Below, piece after piece: positions 2,326-58,923 of a stretch of DNA of 64,000 nt. The translations under genes were made by a program, and so were the position numbers. Positions within the stretch are counted from its first letter, which is position 1. Each line of letters starts with the position of its first letter. The stretch is from Candidatus Lloydbacteria bacterium RIFCSPHIGHO2_02_FULL_50_18 (GTDB taxonomy: Bacteria; Patescibacteriota; Minisyncoccia; Phycocordibacterales; UBA6899). The notes below the pieces were generated by a model that saw nothing but the letters and a program-made list of their open reading frames with translations, was not told the DNA's origin and searched no databases. The stretch spans positions 1-64,000 of the forward strand of contig MHLM01000004.1 of the NCBI GenBank assembly GCA_001821395.1. The letters are read 5' to 3'.

Positions 2326-4413
2326 ATGATAACCAATGGTGAATTTTTTAACGCTACCCTTGAAGCCCTTGATTTTGAGGGTGACGACCAGCAAAGGCGT
2401 GACACCGAAGCCAATGCCGGCAACATAGTCCAAGCGGTCATGACCGCTTACGGTGCGCCGGCGGGAGGGGTTATTGACCCCACCTCAACACCCACACCTC
2501 CTCCTGTCGGACTAGTCTACGGACGTATTCAAAGCGGTAAGACTCGAGCGATGATCGCCAGTACTGCTCTTGCATTCGATAACGGTTTCCGCATTTCGGT
2601 CGTTATGACCAGCAATATAAATGATCTGGTGACACAGACGCATGGAGACTTTACGAGCGGCCTTCATGGTGTGATGACCTTCACAAAAGATGATGATCTT
2701 GGGCGTGAGGTTGAGAATGTGAAGATGCAGATGGAAAGAGGCAATGGACGCCTACTCATTGTCTGTTCTAAAGGGGCGGGAAGCCTTCAGAACGTCTCTA
2801 CTTTTCTAACCAACATTGGAGCCGGTGAGTACCCCGCAATCATCTTCGACGATGAAGGAGACCAGGCGTCTCTCGACACGAACACAGCAAGGCGCGCTCG
2901 AGGCGAAGTCGCCATAGACCCCAGTACGATAAATCGCATCATTCAGAATAATCTCAAGGGTGCTTTGATTCGTCACGTCTACGTTAGTGTTACGGGGACG
3001 CCTCAAGCTGTACTTCTCCAGAGTGTTGGGTCAACACACCGCGCTTCGTTTATCACAATGCTACCTCCCGGCAGGTCATACATTGGAGGCGATCACTTTT
3101 TCAGCACAGGTGAACCGGAGGACAATCCTGATCGTCTAATCGAAATTGTTGAGCACGATGAGAAGGATCAGCTCCTAAATATGGACGCTATCGTGCCTGA
3201 TGGATTAAGGCACTCGATACTCTTTTTCCTTGTTTCAGCCTCTGCCGCGATTCTAACAATAGGCCCCAAATCGAAAGGATATGCGCATCTATCTCACCCG
3301 AGTCTTCGGAACAATGAACAGGAGTGTGCTGAAACGCGTATAAACGTGTTCCTGGCTGAAGTCGCTTCAGCATTATTTGAGGAAGGAGAAACTGAGATTG
3401 AGAGAGAGCTACGAGCGGCCTATGAGAATCTCCGTACGACACTAGGAGATGAGACTCCTGACTTCGCCGATGTGGTAGAGACCATCAAGAAGCAACTCGC
3501 AACGAGAAAGATTCTTGTGATAAACGCAAAGGTAAAGAGACAAGGTATTGCATACGGTCCCGGCCTAAACTTCTTAATCGGCGGTAACACTTTAGGGCGA
3601 GGTATTGCGGTAAAGAACTTGCTCGTAACCTACTACGTTCGGGATGCCCGAGTGTCACAAATAGATACAATGCACCAGCATGCCCGAATGTATGGGTATC
3701 GGTTGGCGACGTTAAAGCACACTAGGCTCTTTATCCCTAGACATCTTTACTACCGCTTCAGGGATATACACGAAAGTGATACGGATCTACGGGCATTCAT
3801 CGAGGCTCACAAGGATCAGCTACCAGGCTCGTTTCCAGTTGAATATACTGAGGAGCTTCGCACGACTCGGGGGAACGTTCTTGATGTGAACAACATGGAT
3901 GCCTTGCGTCCAAGGATGCATGTGTTCCCAAATTACGTAATAGTCCCTCAAGCTGTGAGGGGCTATGAACAAACTATCGAAAGAATGCGAGCGCGGTTTG
4001 TGCTTCCTACTGCAACAGAGCATGAGCTTGCCGCCGCGTATCCTGATGGACTGGAAATAAGTAAGGATGAAGCGATTGAATTAGCAACAGGCATCAAGAC
4101 TCATTCAAAGAATACATGGAGGGATAAGACCATCGCTGTCGTTATTGGAAAAGTCGCGGCACATTACAATGATCGAGTACTCCTTCGTTTTCGAACAGCG
4201 AACAGAACGGTGGGTGTCGATGGATTTATCTCGACGGGAGCAGTCTCCGGTGATGAACTCCGCACAGCACGCGATGGAGCAATCCCAACCCTATGGATCA
4301 TGTCGGTAACGACAAGAGGTGGAGACGGGGTTCCCGCAGGAGAACGTTTTATGTACCCAACATTCATCATCCCCGAGAACTTCCCTCGACTGTTCATGTT
4401 CAATCGTGGATAA
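2326..4413 (+). CDS. Z1-domain-like SF2/P-loop NTPase, putative restriction/defence component partnered with the adjacent cytosine methyltransferase
   Basis: Walker A GRIQSGKT, DEAD-like DDEGD, TGTP and helicase motif-VI-like HQHARMYGYR; immediately upstream of a Dcm-type MTase. Confidence 0.75.
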   Translation: MITNGEFFNATLEALDFEGDDQQRRDTEANAGNIVQAVMTAYGAPAGGVIDPTSTPTPPPVGLVYGRIQSGKTRAMIASTALAFDNGFRISVVMTSNINDLVTQTHGDFTSGLHGVMTFTKDDDLGREVENVKMQMERGNGRLLIVCSKGAGSLQNVSTFLTNIGAGEYPAIIFDDEGDQASLDTNTARRARGEVAIDPSTINRIIQNNLKGALIRHVYVSVTGTPQAVLLQSVGSTHRASFITMLPPGRSYIGGDHFFSTGEPEDNPDRLIEIVEHDEKDQLLNMDAIVPDGLRHSILFFLVSASAAILTIGPKSKGYAHLSHPSLRNNEQECAETRINVFLAEVASALFEEGETEIERELRAAYENLRTTLGDETPDFADVVETIKKQLATRKILVINAKVKRQGIAYGPGLNFLIGGNTLGRGIAVKNLLVTYYVRDARVSQIDTMHQHARMYGYRLATLKHTRLFIPRHLYYRFRDIHESDTDLRAFIEAHKDQLPGSFPVEYTEELRTTRGNVLDVNNMDALRPRMHVFPNYVIVPQAVRGYEQTIERMRARFVLPTATEHELAAAYPDGLEISKDEAIELATGIKTHSKNTWRDKTIAVVIGKVAAHYNDRVLLRFRTANRTVGVDGFISTGAVSGDELRTARDGAIPTLWIMSVTTRGGDGVPAGERFMYPTFIIPENFPRLFMFNRG

Positions 4414-4464
4414 GTTGCGTCATTGCCCCTCGAGTTTTTCCCCGATTAGTTCTATAATTCATAC

Positions 4465-5568
4465 ATGTCATCAAGACGTGCTAATAAATCAAAAGATATA
4501 AAAGTTGTTGACCTGTTCTGCGGTGTTGGAGGGCTGACACACGGTCTCATTCTTGAAGGATTGGATGTGGTTGCGGGTGTAGACAATGACGTCTCCTGCC
4601 AGTTCGCATTCGAACAAAATAACTCATCAAAGTTTATATACAAAGACGTTTCAAAGTTCTCGTCGAAGGAGCTGGAGGAACTATACGGGGATGCACCTGT
4701 GAAAGTATTAGTTGGTTGCGCTCCGTGCCAACCATTTTCGGCAATAAGTAAATCAAAGGCCATCGGAAAGGATGATGACCGTAATCGATGGGCACCGTTG
4801 TACCGGTTCATAAAACTTATACAGGACACAAAACCGGATGTGGTCTCAATGGAGAACGTTCCCGATCTTTGTAATACCAAAAAGTATCCGGTCTTCGCTG
4901 ACTTCCTGAAGTCTTTATCGGTGGCGGGATATAACGTCTCATATAAGGTTGTGGACGTTTCAAGGTATGGCGTGCCGCAGAAGAGGAGAAGGATGGTTTT
5001 GCTCGCATCTCGTCTGGGAGAAATTAGTCTCATTCCAGAGACGCACGATAAAACTAACGTCGTTACCGTACGAGAAACAATTGGACACTTGGAAAATTTA
5101 AAGGATGGTGAGGTTCATAAGCTCGATGTCCTACACCGTTCAAGCAGGTTGAGTGAGATGAATAAGAGGCGAATTATTGCCACACCAAAGAATGGCGGTA
5201 GCGCAAAGAGTTGGAGCGATGACCTGATGCCTGATTGTTTCAAGCGGGATAGTGGTAAGTCATACATGACGACTGTCTATGGAAGAATGAGGTGGGACGA
5301 TGCTTCTCCTACGATAACAACACACTGCACTACGTTAGGTGCTGGTCGGTATGGTCACCCAAAACAAAACCGAGCAATCTCTCTTCGTGAAGCCGCCTTG
5401 CTTCAAAGCTTTCCTGAGTATTATCAATTTGATCCGCCTGAAAAAATTTCGATGGTTAAGACAGCGAGACATATCGGAAATGCTGTCCCAGTTCAATTGG
5501 GCCGAGTAATCGGTGAAAGTATTAAAAGGCATATCGAAACTCATAGGGCTACAGCCCGGAGGAAGTAG
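4465..5568 (+). CDS. DNA (cytosine-5)-methyltransferase
   Basis: Motif I DLFCGVGG, motif IV GCAPCQPFS, motif VI ENVPDL, motif VIII QKRRRMVLL, motif X region ISLREAALLQSFPEYY. Confidence 0.9.
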   Translation: MSSRRANKSKDIKVVDLFCGVGGLTHGLILEGLDVVAGVDNDVSCQFAFEQNNSSKFIYKDVSKFSSKELEELYGDAPVKVLVGCAPCQPFSAISKSKAIGKDDDRNRWAPLYRFIKLIQDTKPDVVSMENVPDLCNTKKYPVFADFLKSLSVAGYNVSYKVVDVSRYGVPQKRRRMVLLASRLGEISLIPETHDKTNVVTVRETIGHLENLKDGEVHKLDVLHRSSRLSEMNKRRIIATPKNGGSAKSWSDDLMPDCFKRDSGKSYMTTVYGRMRWDDASPTITTHCTTLGAGRYGHPKQNRAISLREAALLQSFPEYYQFDPPEKISMVKTARHIGNAVPVQLGRVIGESIKRHIETHRATARRK

Positions 5569-5818
5569 ATTCAGCTCGCCTAAAAAGGTAGAATGAAGGT
5601 GTCACATCCTGTGACCACATAGCCTAAACCAGGAGCAATCCTGGCATGGCCACATAAATCCTACGCGACAGAAGCGGCCTCATAGGTCGGCTCTACTCGC
5701 GTAGGTCAGGTGTCCCGAAAGGGCCCTGGGTAATGCCCGAAAGGGTGTTATCGCCGATTCTGTGGGGCCACTTCTGTACCTACAGCTTCGGGATTATCAG
5801 AAAACCTACGCGAACAAT

Positions 5819-6325
5819 ATGAGAAATTCTCACCGGGGATTCATCCCTCTGGTGGCAATCATCCTACTCGGCCTAGTGGCTGTGGGTGGAGGGGTGGTTG
5901 CGACCATATCACTTAAGGGGCACGAAAGGGCTCCTGCTTCACCCGAGCAAATCGATTCTTTGGCCCCTGTTGCGGCACGTGTCGAGAGTTCTGCCACCAC
6001 TACGACAAGTACGAGCCCGGCGGGCACTAAGCCACCCGTTGAACAGATTGAGGTAGTGACCGAAAAGCAGGTCGTTTTAGATACAAAATCCAAGGAGATC
6101 TGCGACCAAATCGCCTCGGTTCAAATCGATACCTCCAAGCAGTCCCTTGTTGAGGACATGAGAGTGCTCTGTGAGCTGATCGATAAAGGGCGCTATCAGG
6201 AGGGAGAGGAGCTTGATACGGCAACCACACGACTACATGAGAAGTGGGAGTTGTGGCTCAAGGTCCAAACGGCCCAAGAATCAGCAGAAAGCAGGGCCCA
6301 GGACATAGAAAACGGTACCAGATAG
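5819..6325 (+). CDS. membrane-anchored hypothetical protein (single N-terminal TM, Ser/Thr-rich linker, acidic C-domain)
   Basis: Track ORF 5762..6325 starts with GTG; ATG at 5819 gives MRNSHRG + TM helix; island cargo. Confidence 0.45.
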   Translation: MRNSHRGFIPLVAIILLGLVAVGGGVVATISLKGHERAPASPEQIDSLAPVAARVESSATTTTSTSPAGTKPPVEQIEVVTEKQVVLDTKSKEICDQIASVQIDTSKQSLVEDMRVLCELIDKGRYQEGEELDTATTRLHEKWELWLKVQTAQESAESRAQDIENGTR

Positions 6326-6335
6326 CCTCACACAT

Positions 6336-6445
6336 CGAATTACAGCGAATTAAAATAGGGGTCTTGGACCGAATTAAACCGAATTAAATACGGGGGTCTG
6401 GAGCGGATCAAAGCGAATTAAATCGAGGGGTATGGAATGCGCCGG
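6336..6445. repeat. iteron-like array: five CGAATTA(AA) copies, three followed by a G-run and TCTGGA-like tail
   Basis: cgaatta at 6336, 6346, 6370, 6380, 6414, read directly; just upstream of the recombinase operon. Confidence 0.5.
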
Positions 6446-6704
6446 AAACTGAAAAAATACGAGAGATCGTTATCCACAAGGGTGGCACAGGTGTGCAACC
6501 TTGTGCGATTTGTGCAGAAGCATAAACTAAAGAGGTACCTATCTGGTTAAACCAGATTAGTCTCGGAGTAAGACCCGGGCTAAACACTGAGGCTGGGAAC
6601 CTCGCTAGGCAGGGATCATCGAGAGGCTGCCATTTCATCTCACGAACGTGGGGTGCGATGGCAGTCTCTTTGCTGTTAAGCATCACACGCCGTGCACACA
6701 CGGC

Positions 6705-6884
6705 ATGCTATCTCTCGAAGAATGTAAGAAACACATACGAAGTCTGGACTTACCTGATGATGAGGTCGAAAAAATCAGGGACCTTTTGTATGCCTTTGTG
6801 GAAAGAACGCTGGACTATGGCCTTGAAAAAGGCATGTTTGTTGTTGCACATAAGCCATGTCATCCAACCGATCAAGAAAACTAG
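6705..6884 (+). CDS. possible small acidic protein upstream of / overlapping the recombinase start (excisionase/regulator-like by position only)
   Basis: Inner ATG of track ORF 6648..6884; charged helical-looking sequence; overlaps the recombinase start by 28 nt. Confidence 0.25.
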   Translation: MLSLEECKKHIRSLDLPDDEVEKIRDLLYAFVERTLDYGLEKGMFVVAHKPCHPTDQEN

Positions 6885-8458
6885 ATTCAAGCTCAGCACT
6901 AATCTATTGCCGAGTCTCCTCGGATCGCCAGGCGAAAGAGGGTCATGGACTCGATAGTCAGGAGCATCGATGTCGCGAGTACGCGAAGTCGAAGAGTTAT
7001 GAAGTGGAAGACGTATTTACCGATACCTTCAGTGGCGGCGGTGATTTCTTGAAACGGCAAGGCATGGTCGCGTTACTACATTACATAGATAAGCACCCGC
7101 ATAGAAACTATGTTGTGGTCTTCGACGACTTAAGCCGATTTGCTCGAGATGTCGCGGCTCATATAAGGCTTCGACAAGAGTTTGATAAAAGAGACACAAA
7201 GATTGAGTGCCCAAACTTCACGTTTGAAGATACGCCAGAGGGTGAATTGGTGGAGAACATTATGGCGGCACAGAATCAGTACCACAGGAAAAGCAACAGG
7301 AGACAGGTAATTCAGAAGATGAAAGCTCGACTTGAGAAGGGGTATTGGCCTCACTATCCGCCACCGGGCTACAAGCAAGCGAACGATCCAGTACACGGTA
7401 AGCTCCTAAAACCAATAGAGCCTCGGGCAAGCATAATCAGAGAAGCCTTTGAAGGGTTTGCTTCTGATCGCTTCATGACTCAGACCGACGTCATGTACTT
7501 CCTACGAGGGACTGAATATAACAATGGCAGACCTGTTTACGTGGAAGGAGTCAGGCGTCTGCTCCGCCGGGTGGTATATGCCGGTTATGTCGAGCGTGAG
7601 GAATGGGATGTGTCGAGACGTAAGGGACAGCATGAAGCACTGATTAGTTTGGAAGTGTTCGAAAAAGTCCAAGCAAAGCTCGATGGCAAGTGTAGGGTGC
7701 GCACGCGGATAAGTGACAAACTCGACTTCGCACTGAGAGGCTCAATCCTGTGTCACGAGTGTAGGCGTCCACTAACGGGAAGCTGGAGCAGAGGGAGGAG
7801 CAAGATGTACCGATTCTACCGATGTAACACGCCGTCATGCGCGCGCTATAACAAGAGCCTCAATGGTGATTTCGTGGATGAGAGATTCAAAGTGTTACTT
7901 GAGTCTGCTGTACCGCGAGCAGAACTTCTTGAACTCACACGGGCGATTGCTCTAGACGTATGGTCAAAGAGAATTAAGACCATAGATGAGCGTCGGACAG
8001 AGCTCGAGAGGAAGCTCACTGAAACACGACGGCAGGTAGAGGTATTCTCAGACCGGATCGTCAGAGCAATAGACGAATCGATGGTTCGAGTGTACGAGGA
8101 GCAAATTGTCCGAATAAGGGAAGAGGGACTTCTCATCCAAGAACAACTGCAGAAACTCGGAGTATCAGCCTCGAGCTTTGAAACCGCACTTGAAGTGGTG
8201 ATGGGATTCCTAAAAGACCCAGTGTTCATATACGAAAATGGAGACATGAACGCAAAAAGACTAGTCCTAGGACTAGTCTTCGCGGAGAAATTGGCGTTCC
8301 ATCACAAGGATGGCTTTGAAACCGCTCAAAAGCCAATGTTAATCGGGCTATTTGAACAGATTCACACCAAGGATTCCCAAGATGTGGAGATGGCGGGGGC
8401 GAACCCGCGTCCAGCAGAGAAGAGTACAAAGATCTACGTGCGTAGGTTGTCTCATTGA
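6857..8458 (+). CDS. large serine recombinase (resolvase/invertase-type catalytic domain + recombinase and zinc-ribbon C-terminal region)
   Basis: N-terminal ALIYCRVSSDRQ catalytic serine motif; 533 aa; Cys cluster CHECRRPLTG...CNTPSC; coiled-coil C-terminus. Confidence 0.9.
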   Translation: MSSNRSRKLDSSSALIYCRVSSDRQAKEGHGLDSQEHRCREYAKSKSYEVEDVFTDTFSGGGDFLKRQGMVALLHYIDKHPHRNYVVVFDDLSRFARDVAAHIRLRQEFDKRDTKIECPNFTFEDTPEGELVENIMAAQNQYHRKSNRRQVIQKMKARLEKGYWPHYPPPGYKQANDPVHGKLLKPIEPRASIIREAFEGFASDRFMTQTDVMYFLRGTEYNNGRPVYVEGVRRLLRRVVYAGYVEREEWDVSRRKGQHEALISLEVFEKVQAKLDGKCRVRTRISDKLDFALRGSILCHECRRPLTGSWSRGRSKMYRFYRCNTPSCARYNKSLNGDFVDERFKVLLESAVPRAELLELTRAIALDVWSKRIKTIDERRTELERKLTETRRQVEVFSDRIVRAIDESMVRVYEEQIVRIREEGLLIQEQLQKLGVSASSFETALEVVMGFLKDPVFIYENGDMNAKRLVLGLVFAEKLAFHHKDGFETAQKPMLIGLFEQIHTKDSQDVEMAGANPRPAEKSTKIYVRRLSH

Positions 8459-8775
8459 TTTCATGTCGTAAGGGCTAGGCAAACAAAACCTTACGAGCAC
8501 TACTCCCTTAGTTTTCGTTATCGTATTCGGGTACTACGATTCTTATCCTGAAAATATGACACGAAGGATGGGCCTATCAGGCGTACTCCCGCTTCGCGCC
8601 GTCTACTTAAGCGTAGGCGAAAGCGAAATTGTTGGCCTTAAAGTAAGGCGTCGCAATTCCACCGGTGCTTTTCTTGGCACTTTCAAGTTGTTCGCGTGAT
8701 TTACGAGACTACGAACATGCTCGGCACGCACGATATACTACTTCTTCCACTGTCGAAACATTTCATCCCCCTAAA

Positions 8776-12028: not shown

Positions 12029-12430
12029 ATGGCGGAACTGCTATCTTTGAAGCCTTATGCTGCGACGATGGAAGTCTCACTTGAGCTACCGCTCATTACG
12101 ATGCAGGTCGTGCTATGTTTTGGTCCGTTCAACTCGCTTGAAAAGGCGGAAGAGTGGACCGGAGAGGTAGAACGTCTTCATCGGGGAATCGAGACCGAGG
12201 AGGTATCCAAGAGTGGCGAAGTCTTCGACGCGACGGGGCTTCCGACCGGTGCATTCGTTCGGTCGTATGTTCATGGAACGGACATCATTCAAGTTGGTCA
12301 GTCCGCGCGGAAACAGGGAAATCTTATTCCGGTAAACACACCCGAAGTTGACGCGCGCGATCTGCATATCTATGCTCTCCGGGCAATTGAAGAGGCAACA
12401 AATATGGCATTCATGGCGCTCGGTCTGTAG
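12029..12430 (+). CDS. hypothetical protein
   Basis: GGGAG 7 nt before ATG; protein-like composition; followed by a terminator. Confidence 0.45.
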   Translation: MAELLSLKPYAATMEVSLELPLITMQVVLCFGPFNSLEKAEEWTGEVERLHRGIETEEVSKSGEVFDATGLPTGAFVRSYVHGTDIIQVGQSARKQGNLIPVNTPEVDARDLHIYALRAIEEATNMAFMALGL

Positions 12431-12449
12431 CATCGTGCGGTGTCTGAAT

Positions 12450-12474
12450 CAGGGGCGCTCCCCCTGGTTTTTTC
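12450..12474 (+). terminator. rho-independent terminator
   Basis: cagggg-cgctc-cccctg then TTTTTT. Confidence 0.55.
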
Positions 12475-12518
12475 TTTGATTGAATGAAATGCAATAATAG
12501 ATTACTCTATAGGAGTTG

Positions 12519-12676
12519 TACCCACCCGTAGCAGAGTTGGTAAGCCAGCTCACTACGTGAGGCCTGGCTGGCTTTTTCGAAAATGAGCCGGCCACCGCCA
12601 GCGCATTCACACAACTCGTCTTCTCCGTTACACTACGAAGGCGATCTCGAATAGAGCGGTCGTCTTTGGAAAGGCA
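12519..12676 (+). pseudogene. degenerate tRNA 5' fragment (copy of the 5' half of the downstream tRNA-Ile) with a ~111-nt structured element inserted in its D-loop
   Basis: cccacccgtagcAgagttgg ... tagagcggtcgtcttt matches the tRNA at 12860 except D-stem mismatches; no intact 3' half. Confidence 0.5.
12541..12651 (+). ncRNA. copy 1 of a conserved ~112-nt hairpin-rich element (terminator-like hairpin + TTTTT, CACC-loop hairpin, ACACAACTCGTCTTCTCCG and CGATCTCGAA blocks)
   Basis: Same element at 58634..58746 with compensatory changes in two stems (AGCCAG/CTGGCT vs AGCCAA/TTGGCT; GCCGGC..GCCAGC vs GTCGCC..GGCGAC). Confidence 0.55.
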
Positions 12677-12857
12677 GCGAGAGATAAATGAAAGTTCTAC
12701 TTTCATTTGAATCGAGTGAACCTTTCCGTTCTTTGAGAATTTTGTGCACGCATAGCTCAGTTGGTAGAGCGGTCGTCTTTAGAAGAGCAACGAGAGATAA
12801 ATGAAAGTTCTACTTTCTTTTGAATCGAGTGAACTCTTCGCATTCTTTGAAAACTTA
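12677..12857 (+). repeat. two tandem ~110-nt units, each [~77-nt spacer with gaaagt-tct-actttc hairpin] + [tRNA 5' half]
   Basis: Spacers 12677-12745 and 12781-12857 are ~85% identical; second unit contains tRNA 5' half 12746-12780. Confidence 0.6.
12746..12780 (+). other. tRNA 5' half (acceptor GCACGCA, D-arm, anticodon stem GTCGT, loop start CTTT); its matching 3' half is at 12952..12986
   Basis: Acceptor 5' GCACGCA pairs with TGCGTGC at 12979-12985; stems GTCGT/ACGAC perfect. Confidence 0.55.
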
Positions 12858-12859
12858 GT

Positions 12860-12932
12860 CCACCCGTAGCTCAGTTGGTAGAGCGGTCGTCTTATACACG
12901 ATTGGTCCCTGGTTCGAGTCCAGGCGGGTGGA
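12860..12932 (+). tRNA. tRNA-Ile (anticodon UAU; loop CTTATAC), no encoded CCA
   Basis: Hand-folded cloverleaf: acceptor CCACCCG/CGGGTGG, D-stem GCTC/GAGC, anticodon stem GTCGT/ACGAT, T-arm CCTGG-TTCGAGT-CCAGG. Confidence 0.7.
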
Positions 12933-12951
12933 CTCAGTTTTGAAAGAATTT

Positions 12952-12986
12952 ACGACTGGTCCTAGGTTCGAGTCCTAGTGCGTGCA
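12952..12986 (+). other. tRNA 3' half (anticodon-stem 3' strand ACGAC, T-arm CTAGG-TTCGAGT-CCTAG, acceptor TGCGTGC) matching the 5' half at 12746..12780
   Basis: Read directly; separated from its 5' half by ~170 nt that contain the intact tRNA-Ile. Confidence 0.55.
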
Positions 12987-13001
12987 CAAAGATTTGAAAG
13001 G

Positions 13002-13030
13002 CCGTACGATTGGTCCCCGGTTCGACTAAG
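13002..13030 (+). pseudogene. truncated tRNA 3' fragment (ACGAT TGGTC CCCGG TTCGACT then unrelated sequence)
   Basis: Anticodon-stem 3' strand and T-arm 5' strand only; T-stem 3' strand and acceptor are missing. Confidence 0.4.
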
Positions 13031-13160
13031 AGTCAGTAGATTATTTTTTGAAAGCCGGAAGTGCTTTTTTTGAGAGGCAACGCCGCTTAATGCTTGCATG
13101 TTCAGAGTTTTTGATTAGCATGAAGAGTAGCAGCGTACATCAACAAAAAGAGGGGGTGTT

Positions 13161-13715
13161 ATGTTTTTCCTTCGAATGTTTTTATCTCTCGCGTGTGCAC
13201 TGAGTCTCTTTGGGTGCGGAAGCGTCGGATTGCTGACTGTCGATAACAAAGTAAATCTGTCCGTTGGAAGCATGGATACGGTCATCGTGCGTTATGAGGC
13301 GCTTGCAGAGCGAGTCAAGGCGGGGGAGAAGGTCGATCGAAAGTCGGCATTGCTCGCACTCGGGATACTCGATGAGAAAAAAGTGACCGTCGAGAGTCTG
13401 CGTCGCACCGATATCCAGGCATATCTTTTCGGTGGCGCATCGATCTTTGCGGGTGACACGAATGTCATTCAACTGCTTGATCACATGACCGGCGTGCGTA
13501 TTCCATTCATCGAACGTAAGGAGCATATCACCCTCTCTTCTGGGGTGTACGTTAGTACCAATGAATCCGGATATGATTTTGCCATTGTCCTCATTTTCAA
13601 AGATGGCTTCATCCGGAATGCGGACCAGATCGGGGTACTCGCGATCAATCGCACGTCGAAGCGCATCATCTGGAACCCCGCATCGCATATAGATGGTGCT
13701 CCAGGTCGTAAATAG
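13161..13715 (+). CDS. lipoprotein, function unknown
   Basis: Strong RBS AGAGGGGG; signal peptide with lipobox LFGC; antisense ORF 13182..13730 rejected. Confidence 0.6.
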   Translation: MFFLRMFLSLACALSLFGCGSVGLLTVDNKVNLSVGSMDTVIVRYEALAERVKAGEKVDRKSALLALGILDEKKVTVESLRRTDIQAYLFGGASIFAGDTNVIQLLDHMTGVRIPFIERKEHITLSSGVYVSTNESGYDFAIVLIFKDGFIRNADQIGVLAINRTSKRIIWNPASHIDGAPGRK

Positions 13716-33673: not shown

Positions 33674-33707
33674 AAAAAAATCACGCTCATGCGAGCGGAT
33701 TTTTAAA
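33674..33707 (-). terminator. hairpin + T-run immediately downstream of the minus-strand type II tRNA
   Basis: Minus strand ccgctcgcatgagcg followed by ATTTTTTT. Confidence 0.45.
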
Positions 33708-33796
33708 TGCGGAGGGGGCGAGATTCGAACTCGCGGACCGTTTAACGGGTCGACAGTTTAGTAAACTGTTGATTTAAACCACTCATCCACCCCTCC
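33708..33796 (-). tRNA. type II (long variable arm) tRNA, Ser-like; anticodon loop TTACTAA gives nominal anticodon ACU (unusual); CA after the discriminator
   Basis: Hand-folded: acceptor GGAGGGG/CCCCTCC, 3-bp D-stem, anticodon stem ACAGT/ACTGT, long arm, T-arm GCGAG-TTCGAAT-CTCGC. Confidence 0.5.
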
Positions 33797-33829
33797 CTGA
33801 TTCCTGTACTGTAGCATAAAATGCAGCCA

Positions 33830-34360
33830 TGAAAGAGAGAGGGCGGGAATTGGTCACAAGTCATACCATCTCCAGTTAACTCTTTCTGCTCACAGAAGTT
33901 TCAAAGGTCAGTCCTTGGCCCTGCCTGCGCAGGCAGGTTTGAAAGGTCTCTCCTTGGAAACTGATTCGGAAGACCTTAACGAGAGATGGTATCACTAAGC
34001 GTATGCGGAGCAAGGCTCCTTATCCGTTAAGTGCACCACGGAGAGGGCGGGAATTTCTCGGCTTACAGCCGCAATACACCTTTGCGATTTATTCAGCATA
34101 AGAATGCTTCACAAATATCACCACGAGGAGTACTTCATTTTTCTAAGACGGAGTACCGTTAAGAAAAATTGGTCGCGCAAAGCTTTTCGAATCTCTTTGC
34201 GAGAGGGCGGATGCGGTCACGAGTTACTAAGCTTTTTATTTCGCTTCGCTCATAAAAATCTAAGTACTCTCGACCCCGACTCGGCTACGACCTTCGACGA
34301 GCTCAGGTCGGCTTCGCGCCTCCGTCTTTCGAATCCCGCCCTCTCGCGCAATGGCATATT
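33830..34360. repeat. array of partial copies of the tRNA-Ser 3' end, plus an 18-bp palindrome cctgcctgc|gcaggcagg at 33920-33937
   Basis: Copies at 33831-33860, 34038-34066 and 34199-34230 are direct (same orientation as the gene); 34340-34356 is inverted. Confidence 0.55.
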
Positions 34361-34381
34361 AAAAAAGACCTTTCGGTCATT

Positions 34382-34471
34382 TTTAAGCCATTGGCGGAGA
34401 GGGCGGGATTCGAACCCGCGAGGGGTTTTATCCCCTGCCACGTTAGCAGTGTGGTGCCTTCAGCCGCTCGG
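34382..34471 (-). tRNA. tRNA-Ser (anticodon GCU), CCA encoded
   Basis: Hand-folded type II cloverleaf: acceptor GGAGAGG/CCTCTCC, loop CTGCTAA, long arm, T-arm GCGGG-TTCGAAT-CCCGC. Confidence 0.8.
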
Positions 34472-57185: not shown

Positions 57186-57192
57186 CAAATAC

Positions 57193-57218
57193 AAAAAAAC
57201 TGCTTTTGCAGTTTTTTT
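57193..57218 (+). terminator. rho-independent terminator after tRNA-Asp
   Basis: aaaaaaactgc-tttt-gcagttttttt. Confidence 0.6.
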
Positions 57219-57235
57219 GTGTTTGCACGGTGGAG

Positions 57236-57262
57236 GAAGCATCTGCATGCTTCCGACGAGAC
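57236..57262. repeat. palindrome ggaagcat-ctgc-atgcttcc followed by an inverted copy of the tRNA-Asp T-arm/3' end (gacgagactcgaactcgc)
   Basis: 18-nt exact reverse complement of tRNA-Asp 57161-57178. Confidence 0.55.
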
Positions 57263-57329
57263 TCGAACTCGCCATCACCATGATGAGTACTTCCAATTTC
57301 ATACTCTCTGTAGTCGTTGAAATTTAGGT

Positions 57330-57385
57330 CGCTCCATAAAGCCTGCGATGACGATCTCGAATAAGCTTCGCTTCTCGTCCGTCCC
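57330..57385. repeat. third, fragmentary copy of the tRNA-associated element family (CTGCGATGACGATCTCGAATAAGC + TTCGCTTCTCGTCCG)
   Basis: Matches the 3' block of the elements at 12541-12651 and 58634-58746. Confidence 0.45.
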
Positions 57386-57393
57386 GTAAATAC

Positions 57394-57417
57394 AAAAAGT
57401 ACCTAAAGGTACTTTTT
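57394..57417. terminator. bidirectional terminator hairpin aaaaagtacc-taaa-ggtacttttt (downstream of minus-strand tRNA-Met)
   Basis: Read directly. Confidence 0.55.
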
Positions 57418-58300: not shown

Positions 58301-58326
58301 AATATTTGAAGTGCCGTCGTAGCTGT
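58301..58326 (+). repeat. partial upstream duplicate of the tRNA-Thr(GGU) leader + first 13 nt
   Basis: atttgaagtgccgtcgtagct repeated at 58338-58362 where it continues into the intact tRNA. Confidence 0.55.
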
Positions 58327-58348
58327 TTTGGTAGATAACATTTGAAGT

Positions 58349-58424
58349 GCCGTCGTAGCTCAGCTGGTAGAGCATCTCCATGGTAAGGAGAAGGTCCCCG
58401 GTTCGATCCCGGGCGACGGCTCCA
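58349..58424 (+). tRNA. tRNA-Thr (anticodon GGU), CCA encoded
   Basis: Acceptor GCCGTCG/CGACGGC, loop ATGGTAA, T-arm CCCGG-TTCGATC-CCGGG. Confidence 0.85.
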
Positions 58425-58436
58425 TGATCGGGATAG

Positions 58437-58485
58437 TGTGCCGCCTTAGCTCAGTTGGCAAAAGAAAGTCAGACAGCTCACTCGT
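58437..58485 (+). pseudogene. partial 5' duplicate of tRNA-Thr(CGU) (first 23 nt) followed by a degenerate anticodon-arm-like hairpin
   Basis: gtgtgccgccttagctcagttgg identical to 58531-58553; then cactcg-tta-cgagtg. Confidence 0.5.
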
Positions 58486-58534
58486 TACGAGTGTTGAGGA
58501 AGATGGTGTAAAATAGTGAACAATTGAATAGTGT

Positions 58535-58610
58535 GCCGCCTTAGCTCAGTTGGTAGAGCATCTCACTCGTAACGAGAAGGTCCGCAGTTCGATCCTGCGA
58601 GGCGGCTCCA
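58535..58610 (+). tRNA. tRNA-Thr (anticodon CGU), CCA encoded
   Basis: Acceptor GCCGCCT/AGGCGGC, loop CTCGTAA, T-arm CGCAG-TTCGATC-CTGCG; A31·C39 mismatch. Confidence 0.75.
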
Positions 58611-58620
58611 AGTAAATAGT

Positions 58621-58803
58621 TTCGCTCAGTTGGTAAGCCAAGTCCGCAAAGCCAGACACTGGGTTGGCTTTTTCGTAGCAGTGTCGCCCACCGGCGACGC
58701 ACCACACAACTCGTCTTCTCCGCTACGCTGCGAAAACGATCTCGAATAGAGCATCTCACTCGTAACGAGAAGGTCCGCAGTTCGATCCTGCGAGGCGGCT
58801 CTA
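58621..58803 (+). pseudogene. partial copy of tRNA-Thr(CGU) lacking the 5' acceptor strand and ending CTAG instead of CCA, with the ~113-nt structured element inserted in the D-loop
   Basis: gctcagttgg | element | tagagcatctcactcgtaacgagaaggtccgcagttcgatcctgcgaggcggctctag. Confidence 0.55.
58634..58746 (+). ncRNA. copy 2 of the conserved ~112-nt hairpin-rich element
   Basis: Aligns with 12541..12651 over full length with stem-preserving substitutions. Confidence 0.55.
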
Positions 58804-58923
58804 GAAAAAGAACGTAGTATTTTTTTGTCCGCCTCAAGAAAATAACTGCTTGTTTTCTGGCAGGATCGAATAGCGAAGCTAAAAAGCCGCGCATATGCGC
58901 GGCTTTGTGTACTCACTCATTTC

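Follow-up and report, generated by a model that had tools for sequence, protein, structure and literature searches.

The tRNA-Ile(UAU) locus at 12522-13059 of a 64,000-nt stretch of DNA from Candidatus Lloydbacteria bacterium RIFCSPHIGHO2_02_FULL_50_18 (assembly GCA_001821395.1, contig MHLM01000004.1, positions 1 to 64,000; hereafter the window) was found to be built in layers, with an intact tRNA gene (copy C) lying within the two halves of a second tRNA-Ile(UAU) gene (copy B), which in turn lie within the decayed halves of a third (copy A). The nesting itself is confirmed, and its reading as a historical record, in which nested pseudogene halves surround a working gene, is well supported by the sequence comparisons. 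The best explanation, to which we give a probability of roughly 0.6, is the serial insertion of a tiny tRNA cassette that disrupts the resident gene at its anticodon loop and replaces it with its own, combined with a spread of the resulting alleles through the halves.

All features of the locus lie on the plus strand. Its left edge is an intrinsic-terminator-like hairpin (12446-12470; terminator scan) at the end of the upstream open reading frame (ORF; 12029-12430). Copy A begins at 12522-12542 with positions 1-21 of an outer, C-type tRNA-Ile(UAU) with the acceptor strand CCACCCG; this fragment matches C in 19/21 bases, both differing bases being located in the D stem-loop. It is interrupted between GGTA and GAGC by a structured D-loop insert of about 110 nt (12543-12651, 109 nt), known in multiple copies with compensatory changes, and resumes at 12652-12667 with positions 20-34 (15/15 to C) and one T, where the outer 5' half ends. 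There follow spacer S1 (12668-12745), the left part of the B cassette, composed of a hairpin (12668-12727) and an 18-nt left inverted repeat, and the 5' half of copy B (12746-12780), comprising B-type positions 1-34 plus one T, with the acceptor strand GCACGCA and 34/34 identity to intact B-type genes. Spacer S2 (12781-12859), the left part of the C cassette, again consists of a hairpin and a left inverted repeat, attctttgaaaacttagt, and precedes copy C (12860-12932), which was identified by ARAGORN and Rfam (tRNA, 69.4 bits) as the single intact tRNA in the region and is presumably the only working tRNA-Ile(UAU) at the locus. On the right side, the 19-nt trailer Tc (12933-12951; 19/19 in the related locus L049) serves as right inverted repeat and closes the C cassette; it is followed by the 3' half of copy B (12952-12986; B-type positions 39-73, 35/35 to intact B-type genes), the 19-nt trailer Tb as the right end of the B cassette (12987-13005; 18-19/19 in loci L049, L050 and L066) and, at 13006-13059, the 3' half of copy A (positions 39-73, decayed past about position 59) with a trailer remnant.

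Repeat analysis revealed three 3' units with a period of exactly 54 nt, and 5' units with a period of 113-114 nt; a 26-nt core of the spacers and a 27-nt core of the 5' halves each occur twice, compared to 0 occurrences expected in shuffled sequences. A preliminary description of the locus, drawn from the letters of the sequence, had named the intact tRNA-Ile(UAU), the matching B halves, 5' spacers about 85% identical to each other and an inverted repeat across the intact tRNA. ARAGORN and Rfam agreed on the tRNA, the B acceptor strands pair at 7/7 positions, the spacers are identical at 67/79 positions (85%), and the inverted repeat spanning C was found to be 25 nt long at 92%. The description had also proposed a second 5' fragment and a truncated 3' fragment bracketing the inner trio. 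The 5' fragment is real, as is the bracketing; the 3' fragment is of full length but decayed, its trailer keeping TTTTGAAAG in register with the 54-nt units.

The 730-nt intergenic region is 100% identical in four independent assemblies (ENA, NCBI GCA_001818945.1, JGI and Logan), and the nesting is therefore not an assembly artefact. Several short contigs end within this region. The terminator and leader ahead of the A 5' fragment also precede an uninterrupted tRNA in locus L010, and the fragment sits where the intact tRNA lies in L010 and L076.

The B acceptor strands (GCACGCA/TGCGTGC) pair throughout, whereas cross-combinations of B and C strands mismatch at 3/7 positions. When rejoined, the B halves are identical at 69/69 positions (34/34 and 35/35) to the intact B-type genes of L022, L049 and L050. 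The two types differ in three acceptor pairs and two T-stem pairs, all of them compensated, and each type is the sole intact gene in several genomes of the Candidate Phyla Radiation (CPR). The A 3' half matches C in 19/21 of its first 21 nt and in 6/14 of its last 14 nt; decay of remnants is seen both in this copy and in the outer units of L050. Judged by these comparisons, copy A is C-type and old, and A and B are presumably dead remnants. The anticodon UAU, which the preliminary description had called uncommon, is indeed so among bacteria at large but not in this case: scanning species-representative genomes revealed an identical 24-nt tRNA-Ile(UAU) 5' core in 51 species-level genomes, each with an intact UAU loop, and all taxon-named carriers among them belong to the CPR. 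This implies that tRNA-Ile(UAU) is normal and common in this radiation.

In each broken copy the gene is interrupted between positions 34/35 and 39. The left junction reads CGTCTT(T) followed by the hairpin, and the right junction reads trailer followed by ACGA; the two share no common core, CTT is present at the left junction only, and the four loop nucleotides 35-38 (ATAC) are missing even beside pristine halves, as evident from copy B of the window and the outer 3' half of L066. Since ATAC is lost, the junction is non-conservative. The same loss bears on the suggestion, also made in the preliminary description, that a giant anticodon-loop intron contains the intact tRNA. Under this explanation B, and perhaps A, would be a functional split or intron-bearing tRNA: once RNase P and a nuclease for 3' processing had cut out C, the halves would be joined, or kept together, as RNA. 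The B halves are indeed pristine and perfectly complementary, the leader-trailer helix around C would bring them together, and group I introns are frequent in the anticodon loops of Patescibacteria tRNAs (PMC13011429). However, the seven-nucleotide loop CTTATAC was regenerated by 0/8 splice registers, tried for both B and A, and the sole register that retains the anticodon UAU places a U at position 37. The known Patescibacteria tRNA introns are genuine group I introns in other tRNAs (PMC13011429). A group I intron usually measures 200 nt or more, whereas the 171 nt between the B halves consist of a tRNA and a hairpin; an Rfam search over 12400-13200 at E<=10 gave tRNA matches only, with no group I core (RF00028), and the analogous inserts in relatives matched no Rfam family. 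Nor was a bulge-helix-bulge motif found on inspection, manual pairing of the junctions giving a 5-nt bulge and an irregular helix instead of the 3-4-3 arrangement. With copy A and the outer L050 units decayed, and with an intact gene of the same isotype inside that removes the need for a split copy, a giant intron or split tRNA was rejected on loop reconstruction, remnant decay and the absence of any intron family; we regard it as already close to refuted and hardly credible.

The inserted unit proves, by comparison among its copies, to be a discrete cassette. It is protein-free and consists of a hairpin of about 58 nt, a gap of 2 nt and a tRNA bracketed by inverted repeats of 17-18 nt, giving about 160 bp for the B cassette and about 170 bp for the C cassette. 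The S1 hairpin folds at -25.4 kcal/mol (z = -3.7), and in each spacer the hairpin starts 0-1 nt past the break. S1 and S2 have the same fold architecture, and the basal stem covaries between S1, S2 and the copy in L053 (GGAAAGG/CCTTTCC, GAAGAG/CTCTTC and GGGGAGG/CCTTCC), as does the apical stem; the L050/L075 spacer is divergent in sequence with the same architecture. In copy C, the flanks extend the acceptor helix to about 25 bp (z = -5.9), leaving 2 nt between the end of this helix and the right junction, so that both insertion junctions lie 0-2 nt from helix feet. Such long flank pairing is present in the cassette copies (window C and B, L022, L050, L053 and L051) and has no counterpart in the native loci L012, L018 and L062; the left-end block was never seen without a broken 5' half ahead of it.

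IS200/IS605-type ssDNA transposons and their miniature derivatives carry subterminal hairpins at either end, insert 3' of a fixed target of 4-5 nt without duplicating it, and have a cognate Y1 (HUH) transposase. The cassette defined above has two stem-loops that are unrelated in sequence, junctions at the helix feet, a left flank that always reads TCTT(T/A), and no target duplication, target nucleotides being deleted. No Y1 (HUH) transposase was found among the tested ORFs of the 64-kb window. A miniature inverted-repeat transposable element was rejected, given that the inverted repeats flank the tRNA while the insert runs about 60 nt further to the left, and that a 4-nt loss is found in place of a duplication. 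A weak Rfam alignment had raised the possibility that the spacer is a decayed tRNA 3' half; nhmmer found no tRNA similarity, and the L053 hairpin is unlike a T-arm. Likewise discarded was a peptide encoded in S1, where an ATG-led frame of 38 codons has a start that is not conserved in L053 (alignment read by eye). A circular or tandem form of the cassette would be recognised by a junction reading GAAAGAATTT directly followed by AGAAGAGCAACG.

Related genomes display the states expected of a stepwise history, the orthologous locus being defined as that downstream of a homologue of ORF133 (12029-12430). The empty site, which the preliminary description had proposed to look for, is represented by L010 (ORF133 identity 86%), where the same terminator and leader are followed by a gene uninterrupted through position 47, at which the contig ends. 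Loci L012, L018 and L056 have an intact tRNA-Ile gene only. One level of nesting, B within a C-type gene, is seen in L075 together with L066, and in L050, the outer 3' half being pristine (35/35) in L066 and decayed in L050; L022 carries B inside B. The window has C within B within A. In L049, an intact B gene is followed by a C-type 3' half and then a B-type 3' half, with no 5' remnants, and L053, in a different genomic context, retains a 5' remnant, the spacer and B only. The preliminary proposal that a small tRNA-carrying element inserted repeatedly into the anticodon loop of the homologous tRNA accordingly holds in outline, with uninterrupted (L010), one-level and reversed-order (L049) relatives at hand. 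Its expectation of nested symmetry holds in part: nested states do occur in relatives, but 5' and 3' remnants also occur independently of each other, so strict symmetry is no rule.

The junctions are shared between distant genomes. The right junction of the "C-in-B" form, composed of the C 3' half, Tc and the start of the B 3' half, is identical over 79 consecutive nt between the window and L049, although the ORF133 proteins of the two share just 32% identity and L049 nests in the opposite order. The right junction of the "B-in-C" form, composed of the B 3' half, Tb and the start of the C-type 3' half, matches at 71-72/75 positions between the window and L049, L050 and L066. Compared to L069, the flanks are discordant, with 24% amino-acid identity for ORF133 and 69% for the downstream protein (13161-13715), which suggests that the tRNA locus may be a recombination boundary. 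On the evidence of these matches, cassettes and junctions are shared among CPR lineages, the junctions horizontally.

The proposed history would run as follows. The original C-type gene, A, would have been split between positions 34/35 and 39 by a cassette of about 160 bp carrying a complete B-type tRNA-Ile(UAU), and the B gene would later have been split at the same place by a cassette of about 170 bp with a C-type tRNA. The primary insertion would be rare and non-conservative. For the spread we infer a different route, in which a nested allele, acquired as DNA of another lineage, would recombine by way of its outer tRNA halves, acting as homology arms, into an intact tRNA-Ile(UAU) gene of matching type, the "B-in-C" allele converting C-type genes and the "C-in-B" allele converting B-type genes. 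Under such type-matched conversion the layers must alternate between B and C, and spread via the outer halves would be the reason for identical junctions in distant hosts. Recombination between same-type halves two layers apart would collapse one side; the loss of the 5' side in L049 could stem from recombination between its two B-type 5' halves. The window also contains genes for type IV pili, which are linked to DNA uptake.

Several points weigh against this explanation. Neither a donor molecule nor a free cassette nor an enzyme came to light that would explain the first insertion event. With left arms of 27-34 nt and right arms of about 10-35 nt, the homology would be marginal for RecA-type recombination. 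An interrupted copy with the exact 5'-half sequence gave 0 other matches in species-representative genomes, and a metagenome scan for 3' arrays returned one match, apparently the L049 contig again. S1 is 76% identical to its L053 counterpart, less than to S2, and the closeness of S1 and S2 could be due to copying on the spot or gene conversion just as well as to import. The remnants are asymmetric (one 5' unit only in L053, 3' units only in L049, one 5' and two 3' units in L050), and extra deletions or duplications must therefore be assumed. Finally, the informative loci number only about 10, and in L010 the 3' side beyond position 47 falls outside the contig.

Alternatively, the halves could be scars of conventional integrative elements, or of elements practising tRNA-dependent lysogeny, namely phages or plasmids whose site-specific recombinase acted twice at the anticodon loop, the second time on the element's own tRNA, before the element bodies were deleted down to att-proximal DNA and the element tRNA. 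Disruptive integration at the anticodon loop with a very short core, possibly 5'-CTT, and a compensating element tRNA is documented, and a second integration into the element tRNA has been suggested by the same authors (PMC10865867). Consistent with this, every left junction here follows GTCGTCTT, a phage contig carries a tRNA-Ile(UAU) variant, and seven CPR loci display classical-looking duplications of tRNA positions ~57-73 at 180-240 nt downstream. Conservative recombination, however, cannot lose ATAC, which is missing at every right junction; each trailer runs straight into the next 3' half, so that an element body has no place between them, and layers and genomes independent of one another show the same 19-nt boundary. 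There is no integrase near the locus or in the fetched flanks of 51 loci, and no kilobase-separated halves were seen among 56 loci. Of 28 window ORFs that were tested, one, at the tmRNA gene, encodes a recombinase, which is of the large serine type; apart from it no integrase, transposase or reverse transcriptase was detected. The loss of ATAC, the abutting units and the lack of such enzymes speak against a larger element moving by simple site-specific recombination, and a larger autonomous element was rejected on the absence of separated halves and enzymes. The spacer, the D-loop insert and the cores of two further inserts, X and Z, were not found in viral contigs: scans with the spacer left end, the D-loop insert and the X element gave 0 matches, and the Z element gave 3 chance matches without extended similarity. 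We regard integrative scars as unlikely.

It is also conceivable that no mobile unit was involved, and that tandem duplication or slippage, together with illegitimate or microhomology recombination with foreign tRNA DNA at hairpin-prone loops, produced the layers; the conserved hairpins would then serve the tRNA gene as ordinary signals for its expression or processing. The exact 54-nt period of the 3' units would suit such an origin, as would the extra 3' unit of L050, the trailer of which matches the neighbouring one at 18/19 positions and suggests local duplication, and the closer similarity of S1 and S2 to each other than to orthologous counterparts. Breaks occur, moreover, in all single-stranded loops (D, anticodon, variable and T) and at several tRNA genes. 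Yet local duplication cannot yield differences between B and C that are compensated across both halves, nor can it yield 79-nt identical junctions where the flanking proteins are 32% identical, and the same cassette boundaries recur in different layers. This origin is accordingly judged quite improbable, and serial disrupt-and-replace insertion is retained as the best explanation.

As a more tentative proposition, which we consider possible but rather doubtful, the locus may represent a new class of protein-free, loop-targeting tRNA-gene elements, each made of a tRNA gene and two stem-loops and either selfish or adaptive. A "tRNA-in-tRNA" allele would then move between CPR lineages using the remnants of the previous target as homology arms, and the reciprocal B-in-C and C-in-B forms would endlessly overwrite each other. 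The process may be driven by anticodon nucleases or phages that contend for this tRNA, or by a nuclease cutting the loops of tRNA genes in trans. Small structured inserts in the D-loop, T-loop or elsewhere at tRNA-Thr, tRNA-Asp and tRNA-Ser genes would belong to the same loop-targeting class.

Layering is not specific to tRNA-Ile(UAU). Own fragments and small inserts flank both tRNA-Thr genes, tRNA-Asp and tRNA-Ser(GCU) in the window, and some of the inserts are met again in other genomes. At 58636-58747 the D-loop insert has a second copy, which is 77% identical to that at 12543-12651 and occupies the same position between GGTA and GAGC, its host being a 5'-truncated extra tRNA-Thr(CGU). The insert was also found in L050, L053 and L075; a covariance-model search for further copies retrieved only the four known ones (12543-12651, 58636-58747, L050 and L053). 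It is composed of a terminator-like hairpin and a branched domain, with double compensatory changes in 8/31 predicted pairs, and the copy in A includes a promoter-like TTCACA-N17-TACACT at 12606-12634. Comparison of two strains, L075, which has the insert, and L076, which lacks it, revealed a 100% identical upstream protein, an identical leader and an empty site in L076 that is precise at tRNA position 21/22 (cagttggta/gagcggtcg). Across the radiation, partial copies lie within 250 nt at about 12/51 CPR tRNA-Ile loci. One class of loci (L015, L017, L020, L044, L046 and L068) has an intact gene, an insert of 110-165 nt and then a duplicate of positions ~57-73; insert blocks are common to L017 and L046 (by eye) and to L020 and L068 (profile match), and none matches Rfam.

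At tRNA-Thr(CGU) (58422-58810), a leader, a 5' fragment of positions 1-20 (58440-58459) and about 75 nt precede a leader and the intact gene (58535-58607); to the right lie a 16-nt trailer, positions 10-21, the D-loop insert and positions 22-73 (58749-58801), by eye identical to the intact gene. The neighbouring tRNA-Thr(GGU) (58349-58421) is preceded at 58301-58348 by its own leader (atttgaagt) and a degenerate 5' fragment, gccgtcgtagctgttttggtagataac. An altered D-arm pattern, gtagctgtYttggtagRta, is common to this fragment and the tRNA-Ile 5' fragments of L022 and L062. At tRNA-Asp (57187-57400), a terminator and an insert of about 130 nt (57233-57360) are followed by a duplicate of the gene's own 3' end and trailer (ttctcgtccgtcccg followed by taaatacaaaaag). 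The X insert that follows tRNA-Ile in L020 and L068 (gagcatctgcatgct through to gactcgaa) is a relative of this insert. Between two tRNA-Ser genes on the minus strand (33700-34400), at least three copies of the tRNA-Ser(GCU) 3' end (attcccgccctctc) were observed, and an element of about 58 nt with a covarying internal hairpin (34119-34178) recurs in the T-loop of the L022 tRNA-Ile remnant and beside the tmRNA gene of L049. Adjoining tRNA-Ser(GCU) and this fragment array, ARAGORN reported a tRNA-Ser with the anticodon ACU (33709-33796, minus strand) and an unusual A34, which may be a mutated paralogue.

Other elements were noticed in passing. The region 2326-8770 of the window, where a Z1-domain protein, a C5 DNA methylase and a match to the LOOT RNA (5621-5752) lie upstream, looks like an element integrated at ssrA with defence-type genes. 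In one relative (L077-L080), an ORF of 222 aa (L078 2149-2817) lies between the ORF133 homologue and tRNA-Ile(UAU). Its C-terminal part contains VAGFFLYWGEGAKG, which resembles a LAGLIDADG motif, but assignment as a LAGLIDADG endonuclease is no more than a lead, only an N-terminal helix-turn-helix being retrieved in Pfam, NCBIfam, PHROGs and PDB sequence searches. The phage-like IMG/VR contig L064 (8435-9903) carries a tRNA-Ile(UAU) with the CPR core and the acceptor strand GCATCCT, a third acceptor variant, together with tRNA-Arg(UCU), an RNA ligase and a phiEco32-type amidoligase/ATP-grasp cluster; this gene set hints at a conflict over tRNAs reading A-ending codons.

The CPR, or Patescibacteria, have very small genomes with single-copy tRNA genes, in which breakage of such a gene needs immediate repair. 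The locus described here is a compact solution, in that the incoming DNA brings the replacement gene, and it has been repeated across lineages. If the alleles spread through their halves, an essential tRNA would be exchanged even where the flanking genes of the two organisms have diverged too far for recombination, and a readable stratigraphy of past tRNA genes would be left behind. The D-loop insert and the cassette hairpin are candidates for new structured DNA or RNA elements. On the practical side, the repeats break assemblies, tRNA finders report the innermost gene only, and fragments elsewhere could be mis-annotated. Contigs were observed to end inside tRNA-Ile(UAU), or no more than about 100 nt away from it, in L014, L027, L029/L052, L032, L035, L059, L066 and L070, L029 and L052 being two contigs of one metagenome-assembled genome that both end in this gene. 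These ends fit repeated tRNA pieces breaking assemblies, and nested loci are probably under-represented in public metagenome-assembled genomes.

No description of such an arrangement was found in the searchable literature, and the locus is best placed by comparison with systems that share some of its features. The split and permuted tRNAs of archaea such as Nanoarchaeum equitans and Caldivirga have complete, functional halves that are joined by a splicing endonuclease at a bulge-helix-bulge. They resemble the window in having separate 5' and 3' halves, breaks near the anticodon loop and complementary flanks; the window halves, in contrast, lack loop nucleotides, decay and surround an intact gene, and the host is a bacterium, as evident from the presence of tmRNA and SmpB. 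Group I intron homing (PMC13011429) has the same target, namely anticodon-loop positions 34-38 in CPR tRNA genes, and the proposed spread of the cassette would likewise use the two parts of the interrupted gene as homology arms. Unlike such introns, the insert is without a ribozyme core, the exons are incomplete, and function would be restored by the cargo tRNA and not by splicing; no endonuclease was identified.

Arrays of partial tRNAs occur at genomic islands. Partial tRNA genes left behind by tRNA-targeting integrative elements have been reviewed for prokaryotes (PMC9897764), and the displaced fragments beside an intact tRNA, the 3' arrays of L049 and the ~57-73 duplications resemble these. 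Classical integration restores the tRNA with a 3' segment brought in by the element, and fragments are found on one side only, kilobases apart, whereas in the window a complete replacement gene stands between 5' and 3' halves that match, and the units adjoin directly. With respect to att duplications, the locus has no common core, no integrase and no kilobase element between the repeats.

The closest documented logic would seem to be that of tRNA-dependent lysogeny, as described for actinobacteriophages (Guerrero-Bustamante & Hatfull 2024, PMC10865867), in which the host tRNA is destroyed at the anticodon loop and a tRNA of the element compensates. The phages are about 40-60 kb in size and use a tyrosine integrase and a short common core present at both junctions (PMC10865867), whereas the window cassette has about 170 bp with the tRNA as its sole gene, the loop has lost four nucleotides, and neither an integrase nor a prophage was found. 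In both cases, a single-copy host tRNA is hit near the anticodon loop and not rebuilt, and a tRNA of identical isotype is supplied (PMC10865867); in the window, B and A are split and incomplete, and the cargo is an intact tRNA-Ile(UAU). The second integration into the element's own tRNA that was suggested for the phage system (PMC10865867) would give a nested layout such as that of the window.

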